Shown here: positions 1 to 20,326 of the stretch, piece by piece | Layout of the letters: each line of letters opens with the position of its first letter | Numbering within the stretch: the stretch's first letter is position 1 | From: an uncultured Chloroflexia bacterium | GTDB taxonomy: Bacteria; Chloroflexota; Dehalococcoidia; DSTF01; JALHUB01 | Reading direction: 5' to 3' | DNA: 23,332 nucleotides | Assembly (NCBI GenBank): GCA_963726245.1 | Contig: CAVSBT010000006.1 | Span: 1-23,332, forward strand | Notes under the pieces: generated by a model | Told to the model about the DNA's origin: nothing | The model's database searches: none | Seen by the model: the letters and a program-made list of their open reading frames with translations, nothing else | Program-made: the position numbers and the translations under genes

Positions 1-1694
1 CGCTCCTTGGTGCGCGCCCAGTCGCCGCTGCCGAGGCGGGTCAGGGCAGGGGTGAAGTCGCCGGGGCCCACGTAGCGGCTCACCCGGTCCACCTGGTCCG
101 TCGGCACGAAGAGGCGGTCGCCCTGGGCGTAGTGCAACTCCAGGTACTCGCGCTCGTGGTCATCTAGCGTCTTGCGCGTCAGGCCGGCGAAGCGGGCGAT
201 GCCGTGCTCGATGTGCACCACGTAGTCGTCCGGCGAGAGCTCGGCCAGGAAGGCCTCGCGGTTGGCGAACCGTCGAGGTGCCAGGCGCCGCTGCTTGGCG
301 AAGCCGAACACCTCGCTGTCCGTCAGAAGGGTGAGCGACGCTCCGCCGTCTTGGAGGACCCAGCCCTGGGGCAGAGAGCCCTGGACCAGGGCGAGCGCCC
401 CGTCGGGCAGCGGCGCCTCGATGGCGGAGACCACGCCGGAGGCGAGCCCCTGCTCGCCCAGGACTTCCGAGAGGCGCGCCGCCTGTTGCGAAACGAGGGC
501 GACCCGCTCGCGGCGGGCGACGGCGGCGGACAGCTCGCCGGCGAGGACGCGCAGGCGGCCACCGTAGGCGGGTGCGGCGGCGAAGGGCAGGCGGAGGACG
601 CTACCTCCCCCCTCGCCGCCGGCCCAGCGCGAGAGGTCGATGCGCCGCCGGCGGGACTCGAACGCCGCCCTCAAATCGGGCCAGGGCAGGTGCGGCGGGG
701 GAAGGCCGGCGGGCAGCTCGCCGCGGCCGACCATCTCCTCGCGGACGGCTGCCACCTCGCGGTCATGCTCTTCGAGCACGGAGGCCAGGTCGGCGGGCTC
801 GTTCCAGACCAGGAGGCCGTCGGGCGGCAAATGGTCGAGCAGGGTGCCCCGGGCCAGGAAGGGCGTGTAGAAGTAGTCGTCGTCGAAGCCCTCACCGGCC
901 GCCAGGAGCTCCGTCTCGCGTTCGAAGCGGCCGCGGACGGCGGCGCTGCAGGCCGAGAGGTCCAGCCGCGAGAGGAAGGCGTCTGTCGTCGGGGAAGGCA
1001 GGAGCATCTCGCGTGCCGGCCCGACCACCGCCTCCTTCAGTCGCCCGGTCGAGCGCTGGGTGTCAGGCCGGAACGAGCGTATGCTCTCCACCCGGTCCCC
1101 CAGCAGCTCGATGCGGAGGGGCAGCTCCTCGGCGGTCGGGAAGACGTCGATGATGCCGCCGCGACGGCTGGCCTGTCCCGGCATGTCGACCAGGCTGGTC
1201 AGCCGGTAGCCCCTCTGGACGAGCCGCCGCAGGAAGGCGTCAGGCGCCAGGCGGTCACCTGGCGACAGCCGCTCGCTGCCTCCGGCCAGCTCCTCGGGGG
1301 CGAGGGTGCGCTGCGCCACCGCCTGCCCGGAGGCGACGACCACCAGCGGCCCTCGGGCATCCTGGAGGGCGTACAGTGTGCGCAGGCGGTCGCGGAGGGT
1401 GAGGGGGTCAGGGGCCAGGCGCTCGTAGGGGAGGGACTCGCGCTCCGGGAAGAGGTGGACGCGCTCGGGGTCGCCGAGCCAGGAGGCGACCTCCTCCGCC
1501 AGGGCGGCCGCCCGGTCGGGGCGCGGCGAGACGACCAGCACGGGTCGGCCCGAGGCGGCCAGGGCGGCTACGACGGCGGCCTTGGCGCCGTCGGGCAAGC
1601 CGAGGAGGAGGGGGGTGCCGCCGTCGAGGCGCGCGGCGAGCCCCTGCTCTTCCAGGGCCGATCGCAGGTCAGGCAGGAGTCCGGAGAGGTTCAT
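1..1694 (-). CDS. mfd: Transcription-repair coupling factor Mfd, N-terminal part (runs off the window start)
   Basis: Manual minus-strand translation from ATG 1694: MNLSGLLPDL...HLFPERESLPYE...RRGGIIDVFP...GDYVVHIEHGIARFAGL...EYLELHYAQGDRLFVPTDQVDRVSRY (UvrB-like then CarD/RID domain). Start and end are in the same frame. Absent from the ORF track because it has no stop inside the window. Confidence 0.95.
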   Translation of the reverse strand, partial: MNLSGLLPDLRSALEEQGLAARLDGGTPLLLGLPDGAKAAVVAALAASGRPVLVVSPRPDRAAALAEEVASWLGDPERVHLFPERESLPYERLAPDPLTLRDRLRTLYALQDARGPLVVVASGQAVAQRTLAPEELAGGSERLSPGDRLAPDAFLRRLVQRGYRLTSLVDMPGQASRRGGIIDVFPTAEELPLRIELLGDRVESIRSFRPDTQRSTGRLKEAVVGPAREMLLPSPTTDAFLSRLDLSACSAAVRGRFERETELLAAGEGFDDDYFYTPFLARGTLLDHLPPDGLLVWNEPADLASVLEEHDREVAAVREEMVGRGELPAGLPPPHLPWPDLRAAFESRRRRIDLSRWAGGEGGGSVLRLPFAAAPAYGGRLRVLAGELSAAVARRERVALVSQQAARLSEVLGEQGLASGVVSAIEAPLPDGALALVQGSLPQGWVLQDGGASLTLLTDSEVFGFAKQRRLAPRRFANREAFLAELSPDDYVVHIEHGIARFAGLTRKTLDDHEREYLELHYAQGDRLFVPTDQVDRVSRYVGPGDFTPALTRLGSGDWARTKE

Positions 1695-1745
1695 CTCGAC
1701 ATAACACCAACAGGGGCTGGCCCCGGGACCAGCCCCATCGAAGTC

Positions 1746-1775: not shown

Positions 1776-1787
1776 AGGCGCGGGTCA

Positions 1788-1817
1788 TTGACGGCGGGCC
1801 CCCGACGAAACTAGAGT
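1788..1817 (+). promoter_or_regulatory. Putative sigma70 promoter for the HEPN-DGQHR cassette
   Basis: TTGACG-18 nt-TAGAGT, 50 nt upstream of ATG 1868, divergent from the mfd promoter. Confidence 0.45.
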
Positions 1818-1867
1818 GGGAAGGCTATCTCGCTGTCACAGGGATGCTTCCAAGTCGGTGGTGAGCT

Positions 1868-2746
1868 ATGCGCAAAGTGGCGATCCCGCTGGTGATTCCA
1901 GAGGCGGACGCGGAGCCGCTGCAGGGCATGACCGTTGCTCTTCCTGAAGGTTCAGGCATCGGCGAGCTCCCATGGGACTTCCACGAGGTGTCGCGTGATC
2001 AAGAGCTCGAGCTGTTGCGTTCCGAGGAGCCGCCACCGGCCGTCTGGTTCCGTCTCGACCGCATTGACGATGAGGAAATCCGTCGCAAGGCAATCTCGCT
2101 CTTGGCAACTGTGCATCTTCTCGGGTCGGGGGTGGCACGGGTGTCCCAAGCGTGGATTTACCGGGACAGTCCGCTTGCGTTCACGGAAGCGAGGGCACTT
2201 CGACTTCAGTTGGTTGGTGGGGGTGCACCCCTCCTTCTGCCAGCCGGGATCAACCAGGATGCGGTCGAAAGCGCGTACGACAGGGTGACAGCCGCGCTTG
2301 CGTCGACCCCATGGCTCAGAATCAGCCTAGAGCACATGCTCCTCGCGCTGGACAGGACAGGACTGAGCAACGGCATTCTCGATTTGACCATCTGTCTAGA
2401 GAGCCTCATCAGAGTAAACACGGAGGTGTCGTTCCGTTTCTCGCATCAGATTGCCCGGCTAGTGACCAGCAGCCCATCTGAGATCGAGGACTACCAGGGC
2501 CTGCTGCACCATCTCTACACCGTAAGAAGCGGCCATGTTCACGGAACACAGCCCCAACCGAAGGCCTTGAGGCACGTGCAGCAGCGTGCTGAGGAATTGG
2601 AGGGAATCATGCGAGACGCTATCATGTACGCACTAGAGTTTCATGCCCAGCCCGGCCTTACGAAGGAGGCCTGGACTCAGCATCTGGGTCAACTGCTACA
2701 TGGCACGGCGCGGCGAATACGCGTCGATTGGGGGACGACACCATGA
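1868..2746 (+). CDS. ApeA-like HEPN-domain protein (putative RNase effector)
   Basis: C-terminal pattern LDLTICLESL...EVSFRF...LHHLYTVRSGHVHG, with an intact RxxxxH motif starting at 2525, typical of ApeA-type HEPN domains. The N-terminal ~100 aa is unrecognised. GC is lower than the flanks. Confidence 0.75.
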   Translation: MRKVAIPLVIPEADAEPLQGMTVALPEGSGIGELPWDFHEVSRDQELELLRSEEPPPAVWFRLDRIDDEEIRRKAISLLATVHLLGSGVARVSQAWIYRDSPLAFTEARALRLQLVGGGAPLLLPAGINQDAVESAYDRVTAALASTPWLRISLEHMLLALDRTGLSNGILDLTICLESLIRVNTEVSFRFSHQIARLVTSSPSEIEDYQGLLHHLYTVRSGHVHGTQPQPKALRHVQQRAEELEGIMRDAIMYALEFHAQPGLTKEAWTQHLGQLLHGTARRIRVDWGTTP

Positions 2747-3842
2747 AAGGGACTTCGAGGTCGAGGCAATTCGAGGCGAAGTGCTAGGAATACGCGTCTA
2801 CCGGGGGTTTGCCAAGCTGAGCGACTTGGCCCGGATCTCGCAGCCCGATGTCTACGACCAAGCCAACAACCCGACAGGCACTCAGCGCGATCTCAACCGC
2901 CGGCATGCCCGCGAGGCCTACCAGTACGTCAAGACCCGTAGTCTTGCCTTCTACCCAGAGATCGTGCTGCATGCGCGGGACGCATCGGTGCTAGAGTTCA
3001 GTCCAGCCGGTAGTTCCTTGCCAAACGTGGGCAAGCTGAAGGTCAACCTGGACCGCATCGTCGAACTCGGCGGAGTAGTGCTGTCGCGTGTTGACGGCAA
3101 CCACAGGTTGCACTACGCGGCCGGGCATGAGCCCGGCTTCCCTCCCTTGGACGAGATGGTGGGTTTTTGCATCATGTACGATCTTCCCCCTTTGGAGGTC
3201 GGTGCTGGCGGCGGAGAGTTGGTTCTGTTCAGGGATATCAATGCGAACCAACAAGGGATGAACACGAGTCACCTTGACAGCATCGCTCTTCGAACCGCCG
3301 AGAGGGGCCTGGAGACGCGCGACCCAATCCTCTATATAGCGGAGAGGCTCATGGATGACGACGACAGTCCATTCCACGGCCGGGTCTATCGTGGAGGCGT
3401 TAGACCTGCTGACTTCATGATCCCTTTGAGGAACGTAAAGACATCGGTTCAGTACATGCACCAGCGCTCGAAGAAGCTGGAGCAGTTCAGCGCCGACGTT
3501 CAAGCCACATTGATCAAGCGGTACTGGCAGGCGGTGAGGCAGTGGGTGCCAGACGCGTGGGAGAATCCTGGAAGATACATCGCTCTGCGGGCGACTGGGT
3601 TCTGGGCGATGTCCTTTGTTGGGTCCGCCGTCATCGATAATGCCGTCACGTCCGGCAAGATTGAGATAGGAGACATGCTGGCCGTTCTTCAATCGGGCAG
3701 GGAATGGGATTGGAGCAATTCCGGCGACTTTCGAGGATACGGCGGACGAAAGGGGGCCGTTGAGATAGCGAACATGGTTACCAAGGAGTTTGTATCCGAG
3801 GGGCTGTCGATCTCCGAGATCGAAGCCAAGCTTCGCGGATAG
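2743..3842 (+). CDS. DGQHR-domain (DndB/ParB-like superfamily) protein, DGNHR variant
   Basis: Motif series GTQRDL...YQYV...FYPEIVL...RVDGNHR (3093-3107)...ELVLFRDINANQ...YWQAVRQWVPDAW. The likely start is the ATGA overlap at 2743, one base out of frame in an AAA/GGG run. An in-frame GTG at 2781 is the alternative. Confidence 0.8.
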
Positions 3843-3859
3843 TCGCGCAGCCTCCTGGC

Positions 3860-4468
3860 TTAGCGGTTGTAGCGGTTCATCGCCGTCTCGACGCCCTCCG
3901 ACAGCAGGCAGAGGATGGCCTCGCCCGCCGTTGCGGCGGCCTCGTCAAGGATGCGGCGCTCGTCGGCCGTCATCGGCGACAGCACGTAGTCGACGATGTG
4001 CTCCGGCTCCCAGGTCGGCTCGCCCGCCACCTGCGGCCGCCCGATGCCGATGCGGATGCGCGGGAACTCCTGGCTGCCTATCGCCTCGACGATGGAGCGC
4101 ATGCCGCGATGGCCGCCGTGGCTGCCCCTGGCGCGCACCCGGACGCGGCCCAGGGGCAGGTCCAGGTCGTCGCAGACCACCAGCAGTTGCGGCGGCGAGA
4201 GGTGGTAGCGCTGGAGCAGGTGGCTCACAGCGCGACCGCTCAGGTTGACGAAGGTGCGGGGCTTGGCCAGGATCACCGGCCGCTCGGCCAGCCGGCCCTC
4301 GCCGACGGCCGCCAGCCGGCCCCGGCTGCTGAAGGCGATGCCGTTGCGGCGGGCCAGCCGGTTCAGGCACCAGAAGCCCACGTTGTGGCGGCTGTGGGCA
4401 TACTCGCGGCCGGGGTTGCCCAGCCCCACGATGAGCCTCACGCCATCCGGTTCGCTCACTGGGTTCAC
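3860..4468 (-). CDS. pth: Peptidyl-tRNA hydrolase
   Basis: LIVGLGNPGREYAHSRHNVGF, KPRTFVNLSG, DDLDLPLG, GGHRG, RIRIGIGRP motifs. Confidence 0.97.
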   Translation of the reverse strand: MNPVSEPDGVRLIVGLGNPGREYAHSRHNVGFWCLNRLARRNGIAFSSRGRLAAVGEGRLAERPVILAKPRTFVNLSGRAVSHLLQRYHLSPPQLLVVCDDLDLPLGRVRVRARGSHGGHRGMRSIVEAIGSQEFPRIRIGIGRPQVAGEPTWEPEHIVDYVLSPMTADERRILDEAAATAGEAILCLLSEGVETAMNRYNR

Positions 4469-4480
4469 GAGGGCCCTGGC

Positions 4481-5872
4481 TCATCGCCGGGCCCCTGCCG
4501 GCCGGATGGGCTGGCCTGCCTGACCGGCAGGCAGGTCCAGGCGCACCACGGGCGTGTGGTCCGGCCGCGCCCGCCGCTGCTCGCTGAGGGTCTGCTGCAG
4601 GAGGCGCCTGAACACCTCCGTCGCCGCCTCCACCTCGCCTTCGCTGACCACGGGGAAGGCGCGGCGCAGCCTTTCGAGGATGGGCGGCTGCGCGGGCCCG
4701 CGCTGGCCGGCCGCTGTGGGCTCACCGGCCAGCAGGTCGCGCAGGAACTCCAACAGCTCGTCGTCCAGGACGGAAGCGAGGCCGGCCAGGTCGCTGGCCT
4801 GAACGACTTCGAGGAACTGTTCCATGCGCTCGCCGCGGGCGCGGGCCAGGATGCGGCGCACCGCCTCGCTGGAGAGGCGCGTCATCTGCTGGCTGAGGGC
4901 GCGCGATAGGCGCCGCAGCATGGCGTCAACCTCGCCCGAGGGCGGCTGATCGGCCAGGGTGAGGCCGCAGGCAGGGCAGGAGGCGGCGGTTCCCAGCGCC
5001 TGCTCGAGCCGCTCGGCGAGGGGGCAGCCCTGTACGGCGGCCAGCAGACGCCCCTGCTGAGCGAGGGCATCCTCTCCCAGCGGCCTCCCCAACTGTTCGA
5101 GGCTGTTGAGGCGGGCCAGGGCGCGAACGGTGGCCTCGCTGTCCTCGAGCGAGACGCGCAGGCGGCCCATGTCCCGCCAGTAGCCGGCGTGGTGGGCCAG
5201 GAGGGCGGCGCGGAAGCGCCCGCGAAAGTAGTCGAAGGTGGCGCGCATGCTGTCCAGGCGGTGCGGCTCCGCCCAGAGGGTGGCGAAGGAGATCTGCTCC
5301 AGGCTGACCGTGCGGTCCATCGCCAGGTCGGAGAGGCGCTCCGGCACCACGGCGCGGGCCAGGAAGTCGCGCATCGCGGCCAGCTCGAGGGCGGCTGGCG
5401 GGTCGCGCAGCAGGCAGCGGGCGAAGAAGATGTCCTCGGCCAGCGGCATGGGGCCGGGGTACAGGTCGGCGACGGCGCCCAGCGCCGGCGAGCGGGCCAC
5501 CGCCGTCAGTCGCTCCAGGGCGCGGCGTGCCGGCGCCAGCCCCGGCCTCTCGATGGGTTCCACCAGTGGGGCCGGCCCTGGCTCCGCGACGCGGCGTGCC
5601 GGCGCGCCGACCGGCGGACCACCAGGAGCGACGATCCCCAGCGCTTCGCCGGCGTTCTGGAGCAAGGAGCGGAGGGCGTCGACGATCGGGCGCCCCGTCT
5701 CCGCCGGGCTGCGGCCGAGCGCGGAGGCGAGGGCCCTGAGGTAGGACTGGGGCGCCGCTGCTGCCTGCGCGGGCCTCGACGGGCCCCCGCGATCGGGCGG
5801 CCGTCCGGACGCCTCTGCCCGGCCTGGCGGCGCCTTTCCCAAGTCCCCGTTAGGCGGGTGTCGTGGGCTCAT
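4481..5872 (-). CDS. Hypothetical helical protein with a C...CPAC putative metal-binding motif
   Basis: 463-aa ORF with host-like codon bias between iscS and pth. Low-complexity Pro/Gly/Ala N-terminus, so the true start is uncertain. Confidence 0.7.
   Translation of the reverse strand: MSPRHPPNGDLGKAPPGRAEASGRPPDRGGPSRPAQAAAAPQSYLRALASALGRSPAETGRPIVDALRSLLQNAGEALGIVAPGGPPVGAPARRVAEPGPAPLVEPIERPGLAPARRALERLTAVARSPALGAVADLYPGPMPLAEDIFFARCLLRDPPAALELAAMRDFLARAVVPERLSDLAMDRTVSLEQISFATLWAEPHRLDSMRATFDYFRGRFRAALLAHHAGYWRDMGRLRVSLEDSEATVRALARLNSLEQLGRPLGEDALAQQGRLLAAVQGCPLAERLEQALGTAASCPACGLTLADQPPSGEVDAMLRRLSRALSQQMTRLSSEAVRRILARARGERMEQFLEVVQASDLAGLASVLDDELLEFLRDLLAGEPTAAGQRGPAQPPILERLRRAFPVVSEGEVEAATEVFRRLLQQTLSEQRRARPDHTPVVRLDLPAGQAGQPIRPAGARR
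4515..4535. repeat. 21-bp palindromic element CCTGCCTG-N5-CAGGCAGG, in frame within a CDS
   Basis: Perfect 8-bp arms. Encodes LPAGQAG on the minus strand. Related copies at 5924-5941 and 22901-22921. Confidence 0.6.
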
Positions 5873-5985: not shown

Positions 5986-7161
5986 TCAGGCGGCGGACTC
6001 CCGGAGGGAGCGTACCAGGTCCGGGAGGACGCTTAGAAGGTAGTCCACCTCCTCCTCGGTGTTGGAGGGGCCGAGGGTGAGGCGGAGGCTGCCCACCGCC
6101 ATCTCCAGGGGGAGCCCCATGGCGATCAGCACGTGGGAGGGCTCCCACGTGGAGGAGCCGCAGGCGGCGCCGGAGCTGGCGGCGATGCCCGCCCCGTTCA
6201 GGCGGTCCAGCAGCGCCTCGCCCTCCACGCCGCGAATGCTGACGTTGACGTTGTTGGCCAGACGCCGCTCCGGGTGGCCGTTGAGCTGCGAGCGCGGGAT
6301 GCGCGCCAGGATTCCCTCCGACAGACGGTCGCGCAGTACGCGGCAGGCGCGGCTGTTCGCCTCGCGGCCCTCTTCGGCGAGGCGCAGGGCGACGCCCGCG
6401 CCCACGATGCCGGCCACGTCCTCGGTGCCCGCCCTGCGCTGTCGCTCCTGGCCGCCGCCCGATTGCTGAGGCAGGAAGGGGGTGCCCCGTCGCAGGTAGA
6501 GGACGCCGGCGCCCTTTGGGCCGTAGAACTTGTGGGCCGACAGGCTCAGGACGTCCACCCCGAGCGCCTCGACATCGAGGTCGAGCATCCCCGGCGCCTG
6601 CACGGCATCGGTGTGAAGGGGAATGCGCCGCCCTAAGGCACGGCCGCGCTCGCGCAGGGCGTCCGCTATCTGTGCCACGGGCTCGATGGTGCCGACTTCG
6701 TTGTTGGCGGTCATGACGCTGACCAGCACCGTGCGCTCGTTCACCGCCGCGACCACCTCGTCGGGGTCAACCAGGCCGTGGCGGTCCACCGGGAGGTAGG
6801 TGACCTCGAAGCCGAACTTCTCCAGGTACTCGCAGGTGTGGAGGACGGCGTGGTGTTCGACGGCGGTGGTGATGACGTGGTTGCCGACGCGCGCCTTCTC
6901 CTGAGCGAAGGCGACGCCCTTGAGCGCCGCGTTGATGGACTCGGAGCCGCCGCTGGTGAAGAGGACCTCTGTGGTCCGGCAGCCCAGCACGTCGGCCACC
7001 GAGCGGCGGGCCTGGTCCAGGGCCCGCTGCGCCTCGCGGGCCAGCGTATAGGAGCCCGACGGGTTTCCGAAGCGCTCCTTCAGGTAGGGCAGCATGGCCT
7101 CCAGCACCCGCGGGTGCAGCGGCGTGGTGGCGGCGTGGTCGAAGTAGACGAGTTTGCTCAT
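5986..7161 (-). CDS. iscS: Cysteine desulfurase, IscS/NifS group I
   Basis: YFDHAATTP, FTSGGSES, NNEVGTI, HTDAVQA, SAHKFYGPKG (PLP lysine), GGGQE, RAGT, SSGAAC (catalytic Cys). Confidence 0.95.
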   Translation of the reverse strand: MSKLVYFDHAATTPLHPRVLEAMLPYLKERFGNPSGSYTLAREAQRALDQARRSVADVLGCRTTEVLFTSGGSESINAALKGVAFAQEKARVGNHVITTAVEHHAVLHTCEYLEKFGFEVTYLPVDRHGLVDPDEVVAAVNERTVLVSVMTANNEVGTIEPVAQIADALRERGRALGRRIPLHTDAVQAPGMLDLDVEALGVDVLSLSAHKFYGPKGAGVLYLRRGTPFLPQQSGGGQERQRRAGTEDVAGIVGAGVALRLAEEGREANSRACRVLRDRLSEGILARIPRSQLNGHPERRLANNVNVSIRGVEGEALLDRLNGAGIAASSGAACGSSTWEPSHVLIAMGLPLEMAVGSLRLTLGPSNTEEEVDYLLSVLPDLVRSLRESAA

Positions 7162-18910: not shown

Positions 18911-20326
18911 ATGAAAGCGGTCGGCTACTTTCGAGATGCTCCGGCGGGCAAGGGCCAGCCACTAGCGGCCCAAAGCGCCGCCTTCCTCGAATTCTGTGAG
19001 CAGCAGGGCTACGAGGCCATCGCCACCTTCGTCGACTCCGTCGCGGCCGACGACCGAGGGCCCACGGGCTTCCGGCAACTGGCGGAGTTCCTTCGAGAGC
19101 CGGACAAGGGCTTTGTCGTCGTTGTCGTGCCCTGCCTGGAGGGCCTGGGCGAGACCCTGCGCGACGTGGCCCGCCGCTACTTCCAGATCGAGAGCCTGGG
19201 GGCCCAGGTTGCCTTCACGGACGGCACGAAGGACGCCGCCGAGCAACTCCTGGCTGCCTGGTCCAAGCACGCCGACGGCAAGCGCCTCAGCGATCGCGTC
19301 CGCGCCGCCATGCGCCGCAAGGCCGTCAGGGGCGAGGTGCTGGGACGCCCTCCCTACGGCTACAAGGTCGGCGTCCGTCGCCGCCTGGAGCTGGTGCCGG
19401 AGGAGGCCGTAGTCGTCCGCTACATCTTCCGCCTCTACCTCCAGGAGGGCCTGGGCATCCGCCTCATCGCCCGCCGTCTCAACGAGGAAGGGCTGAAGAC
19501 GCGGCGAAACGGCAACTGGAGCATGGTGACCATCCGGGACATCCTGCGCAACCGCGCCTACTTGGGCACCTACACCCGATTCGGCGTGCGCGTGCCGGGC
19601 AGCCACCCGGCCCTCGTCTCCGCCGAGGACTTCCGTCTGGTGCAAGAACGTCTCAGCGCCCGCCGCACCAGCTACTCGCCGCGAAGGGTCTCGCCCTTCC
19701 TCCTTTCCGGACTCCTGCACTGCGGCTACTGCCAGAACAAGATGATCGGCGTCAGCCGCCGTCAGAGCTGGCGGCGCAAGGACGCGGAAGAGGAGAGCCA
19801 GGCCTCCTATCGCTACTACCAGTGCGAGTCCCGGACCAACCAGAGCGTGTGCGACTACCACACGCGGCGGGCCGAGGAGCTGGAGGAGGCCGTGCGGGAG
19901 GCGCTGAGGGACGCCGAATCAGCCGGTCCCGCCCTGCCGGAGGCCGGCGACGAGGCGGGGGTGCTCGCCGAGTGGCAGCGTCAGGCGCAGCGCCTGCATC
20001 GACGGCTGGCGCAGGTCGACAAGCGGCTGGAGGGCTACCTGGACGCGGCGGCCCGTGGGCGCCTGGCCCGCGATAAGCTGCGAAGCCTCAGCATGGCGGC
20101 CGCCACAGACCGCCTCGCCCTGGAGGAGGACCTGGAGGCGACCGAGGTCCGCGCCCGCCAGCACGCCAACGTCGCCGAGCGCCGGCGGCAGCGGGAATGG
20201 GCGCGCCAGCGCCTCTGTGACGAGTGGGACAGTCTCCTTTTTGCCGAGCGGCAAGAGCTCTTGAGGCAGGTGGTGGAGCGAATCGTGGTCACCGACGACG
20301 ATATCCGCACCCTGCTCCGTCCCTGA
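18911..20326 (+). CDS. Large serine recombinase-family protein with a degenerate catalytic domain
   Basis: Resolvase-like N-terminus, PPYGY, EEAVVVRYIF, IARRLNEEG, W....IRDILRNRAYLG, HPALVS, LLSGLLHCGYC...YYQC zinc ribbon, coiled coil, VERIVV. YFRDA replaces YxRxS. Confidence 0.9.
   Translation: MKAVGYFRDAPAGKGQPLAAQSAAFLEFCEQQGYEAIATFVDSVAADDRGPTGFRQLAEFLREPDKGFVVVVVPCLEGLGETLRDVARRYFQIESLGAQVAFTDGTKDAAEQLLAAWSKHADGKRLSDRVRAAMRRKAVRGEVLGRPPYGYKVGVRRRLELVPEEAVVVRYIFRLYLQEGLGIRLIARRLNEEGLKTRRNGNWSMVTIRDILRNRAYLGTYTRFGVRVPGSHPALVSAEDFRLVQERLSARRTSYSPRRVSPFLLSGLLHCGYCQNKMIGVSRRQSWRRKDAEEESQASYRYYQCESRTNQSVCDYHTRRAEELEEAVREALRDAESAGPALPEAGDEAGVLAEWQRQAQRLHRRLAQVDKRLEGYLDAAARGRLARDKLRSLSMAAATDRLALEEDLEATEVRARQHANVAERRRQREWARQRLCDEWDSLLFAERQELLRQVVERIVVTDDDIRTLLRP

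Follow-up and report, generated by a model that had tools for sequence, protein, structure and literature searches.

What is encoded by a pair of adjoining plus-strand genes at positions 1868-3842 of a 23,332-nucleotide (nt) stretch of DNA, positions 1 to 23,332 of contig CAVSBT010000006.1 (assembly GCA_963726245.1) from an uncultured Chloroflexia bacterium, is the question addressed here; the whole stretch is called the window below. The upstream gene, gene A, encodes a protein with a HEPN-type motif, and the downstream gene, gene B, a protein with a DGQHR-type motif. The initial annotation of the sequence proposed that the two form a novel stand-alone defence or toxin-antitoxin module, composed of an ApeA-like HEPN ribonuclease (RNase) and a DGQHR (ParB/DndB-like) sensor or antitoxin. 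The source genome is a draft of high guanine-plus-cytosine (GC) content, with 2.68 Mb in 46 contigs, 82.8% completeness and 6.28% contamination.

The answer that we favour, with a probability of roughly 0.6, is that the pair is a two-component conflict module in which a HEPN RNase effector is combined with a ParB-like partner that depends on nucleoside triphosphate (NTP) and DNA. The observations that carry this answer are the conserved motifs of the two proteins, the domain family of gene B, the pairing of gene B relatives with two types of HEPN partner across phyla, and the insertion of the pair into a host site.

A HEPN-like domain in gene A

The features of gene A to which the argument refers are the following.

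1868-2746, plus strand: gene A (protein P0001, 292 amino acids), an N-terminal alpha/beta domain followed by a helical HEPN-like domain
2399-2401, plus strand: codon of E178, in the LESL helix; this acidic residue of the HEPN-like domain is retained in 11 of 11 and in 104 of 104 sequences
2525-2542, plus strand: RSGHVH (R220-S-G-H-V-H225), the Rx4H motif, with R220 and H225 invariant in 104 of 104 sequences

The pattern that characterizes the HEPN superfamily, as given in the motif description of a 2013 survey (PMC3710099), consists of an Rx4-6H motif, a polar residue after the arginine and an acidic residue upstream. All of these elements are found in gene A, which has the polar residue S221 after the arginine of its Rx4-6H motif and the acidic residue E178 upstream. 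In an alignment of 104 family members with 17-70% identity, E178, Y217, R220 and H225 are invariant, and at least 90% of the sequences share D172, E186, S221, V224, G226 and W269. The intact RxxxxH motif that had been reported for this gene is confirmed. The extended motif Y..RS...HG is present in 21 of the 22 long partners (those of the gene A type) that were collected from related loci, as described below. The predicted structure of gene A (AlphaFold, mean predicted local distance difference test (pLDDT) 88) consists of an alpha/beta N-domain at residues ~1-125 and a helical C-domain at residues 130-277.

The family to which gene A belongs is not covered by existing sequence models. Gene A matches no Pfam, NCBIfam or PADLOC model (for the HEPN models of Pfam there is no match at E<=1), one of 41 relatives matches only IF2_N in Pfam, and none of 24 larger proteins of the phylum that carry the gene A motif has any Pfam match. 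Because relatives, locus partners and larger motif-bearing proteins all lack a HEPN match in Pfam, the gene A family is, by these model searches, unannotated. A word-based search finds only 10 relatives, with 39-73% identity and all from metagenome assemblies, and a profile search over 1.84 billion cluster representatives finds at least 1146 at E<=0.001, of which 178 lie at E<=1e-10 and 6 at E<=1e-30; most of these matches are confined to positions ~118-285. The same HEPN-like domain (Y-x-x-R-S/N-x-x-x-H-G) also ends proteins of 330-660 amino acids with varied N-terminal parts (loci L080-L104); 21 of 400 further genomes from the same phylum as the window encode such proteins.

The structural matches of gene A are weak, and the HEPN toxins 5yep, 8xdj and 7ae2 are among the best of them. 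A search of PDB sequences with the profiles A1 and A2 returned nothing meaningful, and in a protein atlas the nearest gene A clusters are unnamed, with MauJ (0.87) and HEPN_Apea (0.86, a cluster with 11% PF18739 members) under the threshold for a lead. The assignment of the C-domain as HEPN-like is therefore made on the motif, the conservation and the fold ranking taken together, and not on any single test; on this joint evidence from sequence and predicted structure the domain is HEPN-like.

A protein with a HEPN-like fold need not be an active nuclease, and gene A could instead be a regulator that binds RNA or a ligand, as has been proposed for MtlR-type HEPN proteins, in which case the pair would regulate expression. 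Such a role would suit the weak fold matches and the missing HEPN sequence model, and non-catalytic HEPN domains are noted in the 2013 survey; the same passages state that these domains typically lose Rx4-6H (PMC3710099), whereas the arginine and the histidine of gene A are retained in every aligned family member and the short partner described below retains RNxxAH in 26 of 26 cases. We consider this role very improbable, and the reading of gene A as a putative RNase effector is kept in what follows.

Gene A and the ApeA family

The proposal that the HEPN domain is of the ApeA type is not supported. The ApeA family model PF18739 has no match in gene A, in 41 of its relatives or in 7 of its locus partners, and comparison of the broad A3 profile with 8 PF18739 proteins of the phylum by hhalign and hmmsearch found no relation. 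PF18739 proteins carry RNYxTHY, unlike the Y-x-x-R-S-x-x-x-H-G of gene A. What connection there is comes from a search of PDB sequences with the A3 profile, for which the sole match is 9hxj, at an E-value of 0.013 and 18.2 bits, which is not statistically secure. The match runs colinearly through the part of the protein before the HEPN domain and through the first HEPN helix; a further stretch, over Rx4H, is insignificant. ApeA chains are absent from the fold-search lists of gene A, whose underlying libraries may not contain them.

The entry 9HXJ is Ec3ApeA, and in the parts of the preprint that describe the protein (bioRxiv 10.64898/2026.01.26.701840) ApeA is a single-protein HEPN anti-phage tRNase that forms decamers or dodecamers and consists of an N-terminal domain, a Mid domain that resembles PafA (4BJR) and a HEPN domain. 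ApeA proteins have roughly 440-660 amino acids, compared with the 292 of gene A, and they act alone, whereas a DGQHR gene is the obligate companion of gene A. It is possible, judging from the profile match, that gene A is a minimal ApeA-like protein.

Gene B as a DGQHR-domain protein

Two features define gene B.

2754-3842, plus strand: gene B, a DGQHR-domain (ParB/Srx-fold) protein, corresponding to residues 5-366 of the intact form
3093-3107, plus strand: DGNHR, the DGQHR motif with N in place of Q, present in 54 of 54 loci

The family of gene B can be assigned directly, since it scores 88.9 bits with TIGR03187, the model of the DGQHR-domain family, against a cut-off of 58.85, and 35.6 with PF14072 against a cut-off of 29.1. 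All 28 of the 28 sequences compared agree at R116, D118, G119, H121 and R122. The DGNHR motif noted initially is thus borne out, and its substitution of N for Q, found at every one of the related loci, holds throughout the gene B subfamily. ParB, Noc and Srx chains stand at the top of the Foldseek and VIA lists for gene B, with weak PDB rows in Foldseek (E 0.08-0.6), and the N-domain of the protein is ParB/Srx-like.

The description of the protein as DGQHR (ParB/DndB-like) stands as regards the domain and fails as regards DndB. The DndB model TIGR04172 scores 18.1 against a cut-off of 450, and the DpdB equivalog NF041060 scores 29.7 against a cut-off of 300, in a partial match over residues 231-355; in the PADLOC scan DpdB is the sole match, at 32.5 bits. 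Gene B was considered as DndB or DpdB, and both identities are ruled out by the cut-offs of these models. Its likeness to the two consists of the DGQHR domain and of the weak local DpdB matches at residues 231-355. DndB and DpdB sit with modification enzymes and have the motif DGQHR, whereas the partner of gene B is a HEPN-signature protein and its motif is DGNHR.

The absence of dnd genes from the window had been pointed out, and a search for dndC, dndD and dndE found none of them in the 82.8%-complete genome, with the caveat that the DndE search matched no control genome either. A cysteine desulfurase of the NifS/IscS type lies at 5986-7161 (minus strand), in DNA of host GC content 2 kb from the island that holds the pair. 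It scores 497.6 bits with TIGR03402 (cut-off 530.75) and 358 with the DndA model (cut-off 480), so that the earlier statement on dnd genes is to be read with a desulfurase below the DndA cut-off in mind; the gene is probably a housekeeping one.

Conservation of the pair and a probable replacement of the HEPN partner

A scan with a DGQHR profile, using one genome per species, yielded 54 loci in at least 10 phyla. In 50 of the 52 loci that could be tested, a gene with the HEPN signature lies directly upstream of the DGQHR gene and on the same strand, and the adjacency of the pair is thereby found to be conserved. The upstream gene is a member of the gene A family in 22 of the 54 loci (hmmsearch E 1e-11 to 1e-28). 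In a further 28 it encodes a protein of 180-200 amino acids with the motif RNxxAH, which is present in all 26 of these short partners that were checked, and an N-terminus like that of MtlR or DUF4145; Pfam searches with 8 of the short partners gave weak DUF4145 or MtlR matches throughout, one of them above the cut-off. Two loci end at a contig edge, and in L051 and L052, which diverge most, the genes upstream are unrelated. The estimated gap between the two genes ranges from -20 to +97 nt for the long type (median +4.5, with 8 of 20 pairs overlapping; n=20) and from +2 to +82 nt for the short type (median 14; n=28). The possibility that long and short partners form one family was rejected, the hhalign probability being 0.5%, which indicates no relation.

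The relationship between the two pairings can be followed in a quick maximum-likelihood tree of 57 DGQHR rows (48 loci and 9 database proteins, with arbitrary rooting); the remaining six of the 54 loci have a DGQHR reading frame that is cut or split and are not in the tree. All 24 rows with a short partner, together with the two contig-edge loci, form one clade of 26 with a support of 99 in the Shimodaira-Hasegawa-like approximate likelihood ratio test (SH-aLRT), the rows with a long partner lie outside it, and the host phyla are intermixed. Because the short-partner rows form a single clade and the phyla are intermixed, the tree fits one effector replacement combined with frequent horizontal transfer. 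The linkage also extends to metagenomes: in both of the metagenome loci that were found with the gene A profile, the DGQHR gene overlaps the stop codon of the gene of the gene A type, and four more close pairs may be inferred from the presence of both proteins on equally long contigs from the same sources.

An island between pth and mfd

The position of the pair in the host chromosome is described by the following features.

3-1700, minus strand: 5' part of mfd (TRCF), host flank, with UvrB_inter and CarD_TRCF_RID domains and an alignment with the relative G001
1713-1736, minus strand: host hairpin resembling a terminator of pth, from a terminator scan, kept in the empty site of G001
1782-3857, no strand: low-GC island of ~2.08 kb, bordered by the stop codon of pth on one side and by the terminator hairpin of pth and the mfd start on the other
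1788-1817, plus strand: sigma-70-like promoter TTGACG-18 nt-TAGAGT, from a consensus scan, within the island and ~50 nt upstream of gene A
3860-4468, minus strand: pth (peptidyl-tRNA hydrolase), host flank, PF01195 at E 1.4e-64

The two plus-strand open reading frames (ORFs) at 1868-3842 lie between the minus-strand genes mfd, whose true start is near 1694-1703 by alignment with G001, and pth, whose terminator-like hairpin is now parted from it by the island. The GC content is 0.557-0.613 across 1801-3800 (400-nt windows) and 0.71-0.79 on both flanks, which bears out the lower GC content that had been noted for the pair. A search of 30 relatives with the window segment 1300-4500 gave matches to the mfd part (query 1-482) and to the pth part (query 2562 onward) and to nothing else; the inner ~2 kb of the island was matched in 0 of 30. 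The relative G001, of the same genus, has an empty site in which the mfd and pth parts abut on one contig (C83:54-532 and C83:1-53), and in G019, of the same order, the two parts are 25 nt apart without an island. The junctions at ~1782 and ~3857 were placed by aligning the empty site of G001 with both island ends. A chimeric assembly at this point is unlikely, because both flanks are syntenic with the relatives on one contig. To judge from these alignments, the gene pair is a cassette acquired by horizontal transfer into the pth-mfd site.

The island contains the gene pair alone, with nothing else foreign beside it in the window, and the pair can in this respect be described as stand-alone, as had been proposed. 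The promoter that had been suspected upstream of gene A is also present as a putative site inside the island; it is a consensus match only, in a scan that returned 2 sites where 0.7 were expected from shuffled sequences. A search of the island edges revealed neither direct nor inverted repeats in the flanks, and neither a target-site duplication nor terminal inverted repeats; there is no tRNA gene in the window.

The same site holds other DNA in another relative. In G024, of the same order (L105, G024:C123:36500-39300), ~1.5 kb of extra DNA with a slightly reduced GC content of 0.65-0.68 lies at the pth-mfd site, with ORFs that have no Pfam match, and because of this extra DNA the site may be one that takes up insertions repeatedly. 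Elsewhere in the window, a 463-amino acid ORF adjoining pth (4481-5872, minus strand) has no Pfam or NCBIfam match, and a large serine recombinase with Resolvase, Recombinase and Zn_ribbon_recom domains lies at 18911-20326 (plus strand) among housekeeping genes; it has weak XisF/Ccr-like NCBIfam matches and may mark another mobile element.

The start of gene B

In this copy of the cassette the junction between the two genes is altered, and two features describe it.

2743-2787, plus strand: ancestral DGQHR start, an ATG overlapping the TGA of gene A, now a dead frame of 14 codons ending at TAG 2785-2787
2752-2754, plus strand: one-base deletion relative to the intact 366-amino acid form, with MKG in one frame and FEVE in another

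The initial annotation described the genes as coupled by an ATGA overlap. The ATGA exists at 2743-2746, but its ATG is out of the DGQHR frame, and the coupling is broken in this copy: reading from ATG 2743 gives MKGTSRSRQFEAKC and then the stop, while DGQHR is encoded in another frame, which stays open between 2643 and 3842. The related proteins P0013, P0014 and P0015 begin MKGIFEVE, and P0013 is 100% identical to gene B. Since the homology of gene B to P0013 starts only at residue 5 (nt 2754), with MKG and FEVEAIRG... in separate frames, this assembly lacks one base after codon 3. The intact metagenome relatives L066, with an ATGA overlap, and L067, with an 8-nt overlap, read directly into the DGQHR frame. 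The 90% cluster consists of two sequences, the intact 366-amino acid form from a 1419-nt contig of another assembly and a 380-amino acid form, P0279, which is the protein in the public annotation of the source contig, with a start at ATG 2700.

If the deletion is real, the cassette may be decaying in this genome, with the DGQHR protein not properly made and the pair non-functional here. The short reading from ATG 2743, the beginning of the homologous frame at 2754, and the lack of a Shine-Dalgarno-like sequence (by eye) before ATG 2700 are what such decay would produce. Against it stand the small extent of the damage and the state of the rest of the locus. The frame is open upstream and offers three in-frame starts, ATG 2643, ATG 2700 and GTG 2781; use of either ATG costs gene B only its first 4 native residues, and GTG 2781, which has GAGG 4 nt upstream and overlaps the stop of the dead frame, would remove 13. 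From the reading frame alone, gene B could still be made from ATG 2700 or GTG 2781. Gene B otherwise shows 100% identity to the intact form, and gene A is undamaged. The deletion may moreover be an assembly error, since a consensus error is plausible in a draft genome of 46 contigs with the contamination given above, and an independent assembly holds the intact form. Among public sequencing runs, eight contain no more than 0.10 of the words sampled, and in the four compared as Logan contigs the coverage is limited to parts of 2044-3605 and does not include 2743-2760. We regard decay of the cassette as somewhat unlikely, and return to the reading in which the pair is a working conflict module.

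Genomic neighbours of the pair

The neighbour analysis covers 150 ORFs in 50 of the 54 loci, of which 94 directly adjoin the pair and 56 (from a total of 85) stand one place further out, four loci having been dropped because crude gene calling gave no DGQHR ORF. At E<=1e-8, 22 of the 150 ORFs, in 17 of the 50 loci, match PADLOC models, a count without background control. The matches comprise type II methylases and nucleases, Drt4, SIR2, an AriA/NsnB-like ATPase, mad3/mad8-like and PbeA-like proteins and RT_UG24, and defence-type neighbours of the pair are on this evidence suggestive. In several alphaproteobacterial loci, very large genes flank the long-partner pair (L032, L042, L019; L037, L041, L043); they encode proteins of 840-1015 amino acids with mad3/mad8-like C-termini, or of 713-1158 amino acids with weak PbeA-like matches, and may be further components or neighbouring defence genes. 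Distant DGQHR proteins, with 23-27% identity, are also encoded in a different, apparently uncharacterised context, a conserved plasmid cluster of L077 (NC_009426, pNL1) and L078 (Bradyrhizobium p187_1), which consists of PIN-like, ATP-binding, DGQHR, radical SAM and ATP-binding genes.

The methylases among the neighbours raise the possibility that the pair is an orphan accessory or regulator of a DNA-modification or restriction-modification system, comparable to DndB in the dnd and DpdB in the dpd system. DGQHR proteins are familiar above all from dnd and dpd loci, to judge from the passages of comparative papers that deal with them (PMC10853773, PMC12839542), and a methylase matching PDLC03221 directly adjoins the pair in L005, L048 and L016, with restriction-modification genes beside others. 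These associations are set against the 33 of 50 loci without any PADLOC-detectable neighbour among the ORFs tested, the window island, which has two genes only, the scores of gene B with the DndB and DpdB models, far under their cut-offs, and the failure to find dndC, dndD and dndE in this incomplete genome. An accessory role of this kind is improbable, and the two-component conflict module remains the preferred reading.

The pair is not a named system in the resources searched, as had been supposed: in PADLOC-DB v2.0.0 gene A has 0 matches, gene B has only the weak DpdB matches, and the pair matches no single named system. For 15 partner proteins only scattered PADLOC matches were found (E>=9e-4).

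Proposed mechanism and its alternatives

We infer from the features described above an RNase activity of gene A, binding between the two proteins, a direction of control and a role in defence. Gene A, with its catalytic-type signature E178...R220-x4-H225, would most likely be an RNase effector that needs no metal and works as a dimer, and gene B would most likely be a switch that binds NTP and DNA and that binds and controls the HEPN protein. In normal cells gene B would hold the RNase of gene A silent. Invading or damaged DNA, or altered nucleotide pools, would serve as the trigger on which gene B would release or activate the RNase, and growth would then be arrested, as in abortive infection or by a toxin-antitoxin system.

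The binding step was evaluated by complex prediction, which had been suggested as a check on the pair. The score of the predicted complex is 0.46 (0.54, 0.46 and 0.31 in individual runs), compared to 0.00 for the best control, with a partner pLDDT of at least 75, and at least 55% of the contacts agree between runs. Scores of 0.60 or less were rare among the solved complexes used for calibration (7 of 80), and both of the mismatched pairs that passed had such scores. The prediction gives weak support to the binding of gene A to gene B.

Several results weigh against the interpretation of the pair as an RNase-based conflict module. The interaction reaches no higher level of support than the one just given. 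No HEPN match in Pfam was found for any of 41 gene A relatives or 7 long locus partners, and the Foldseek comparison that had been proposed for gene A returned nothing from the PDB at E<=0.001, its top rows being unrelated kinases and halogenases. In the wider HEPN-like family, a DGQHR ORF lies within 1.5 kb in 0 of 25 loci; because the 330-660-amino acid proteins lack such a neighbour, it is, by this count, only the ~290-amino acid architecture of gene A that is tied to DGQHR. Methylases make up much of the PADLOC neighbour count, itself uncontrolled for background. Neither gene has a match in the phage collection, and in the plasmid collection gene A has none and gene B only relatives of 23-27% identity in another context. 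A real frameshift at the start of gene B, if this protein is an essential antitoxin, would be hard to tolerate, and would thus argue against such a role. Finally, the function of the pair is a prediction from sequence.

The pair could also be a plain toxin-antitoxin or addiction cassette, in which a HEPN toxin and a DGQHR antitoxin, acting by binding or by nucleotide-dependent modification as in the HEPN-MNT systems, stabilize themselves or a mobile element without a dedicated anti-phage role. In favour of this, the operon is compact, with genes that overlap or nearly abut, its spread across phyla is patchy and transfer-like, the pair is a lone insert here with no other defence genes adjoining, and the support for interaction is weak. 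The HEPN-MNT type VII toxin-antitoxin systems are, like this pair, two-gene operons with a HEPN Rx4H protein, and the structures 5yep, 8xdj and 7ae2, which rank among the best matches of gene A, are toxins of such systems. The partner in those systems is an MNT nucleotidyltransferase, whereas here it is a ParB-fold DGQHR protein, and gene A bears an N-domain in addition to what the HEPN-MNT toxins have. Further evidence runs counter to an addiction cassette: defence-type neighbours occur in 17 of 50 loci, searches of plasmids and phages, which often carry addiction modules, did not find the pair, gene B, with 366 amino acids and a conserved NTP-binding-type motif, is far bigger than usual antitoxins, and a real frameshift would leave a toxin to persist without its antitoxin, which is not to be expected. 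We judge an addiction cassette without a defence role to be unlikely, and the conflict module to be the better description of the pair.

A more specific proposal follows the probable replacement of the HEPN partner. It is conceivable, and we advance it tentatively, that the DGNHR subfamily is the constant sensing core of an undescribed two-component immune system, which licenses interchangeable HEPN RNases by way of DNA or nucleotide signals. An effector made up of an alpha/beta domain and a HEPN domain, distantly ApeA-like, would on this proposal have been swapped for an unrelated short HEPN protein of the DUF4145/MtlR type, and the sensor kept.

Relation to previous work

The association of HEPN proteins with ParB-like proteins has precedents. 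The 2013 survey lists, in its Table 1, HEPN families in ParB operons, with or without methylases, and HEPN-ParB fusions, and its HEPN-ParB passage names Saro_3948 (PMC3710099); DGQHR/COG1479 domains are also described as often fused to HEPN (Makarova et al. 2013, PMC3632139). The theme of HEPN-with-ParB operons was thus already predicted computationally in 2013. The operons of the survey share with the present pair a HEPN-signature gene that is tightly linked to a gene of the ParB superfamily, sometimes with a methylase, and a conflict or defence role that is predicted from context only. The pair differs from them in that gene A is unmatched by the Pfam models of the 2013 HEPN families (P0001 gives no match at E<=1, and 7 long partners give none at E<=0.1), carries an N-domain of its own together with the Y-x-x-R-S-x-x-x-H-G motif, and is combined specifically with the DGNHR subfamily; an overlap with the supplementary gene lists of 2013 is possible.

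Comparative papers on Dnd and BREX treat DndB and DpdB, and the pair is not discussed in their passages on these proteins (PMC10853773, PMC12839542). No experimental study of a HEPN and DGQHR pair was found in the literature, where the supplementary tables of the 2013 and 2024 comparative papers may list the genes. The initial claim of novelty accordingly stands in that no tested system was found, and has to be narrowed in that the operon theme is noted in the HEPN-ParB part of the 2013 survey (PMC3710099).

Among systems that combine a ParB-like NTPase with a nuclease, SspE, GmrSD and BrxU have a DUF262 domain fused to an HNH nuclease, whereas the effector here is a separate HEPN protein and the ParB-like domain of gene B, for which the structural match is weak, belongs to the DGQHR family and not to DUF262.

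Implications

Among proteins with the ParB/Srx fold are DNA clamps that depend on CTP or ATP, proteins that regulate DNA modification (DndB, DpdB) and the NTPase modules of modification-dependent DNases (SspE, GmrSD, BrxU). A ParB-like protein that is coupled to RNases would, if the present interpretation is true, represent a different output for a switch of this type, and if the DGNHR subfamily is indeed a constant sensing core, then a ParB-type NTP switch would control an RNase, and not a DNase or a DNA clamp. The HEPN-like domain of gene A also marks a gap in annotation, in view of the at least 1146 cluster representatives that match its profile at E<=0.001. The distribution of the module supplies natural experiments, in the form of one DGQHR clade with two unrelated HEPN partners and of a precise presence/absence polymorphism at a housekeeping site, and the module has cultured carriers among isolates of Bradyrhizobium, Aurantimonas and Paraflavitalea.

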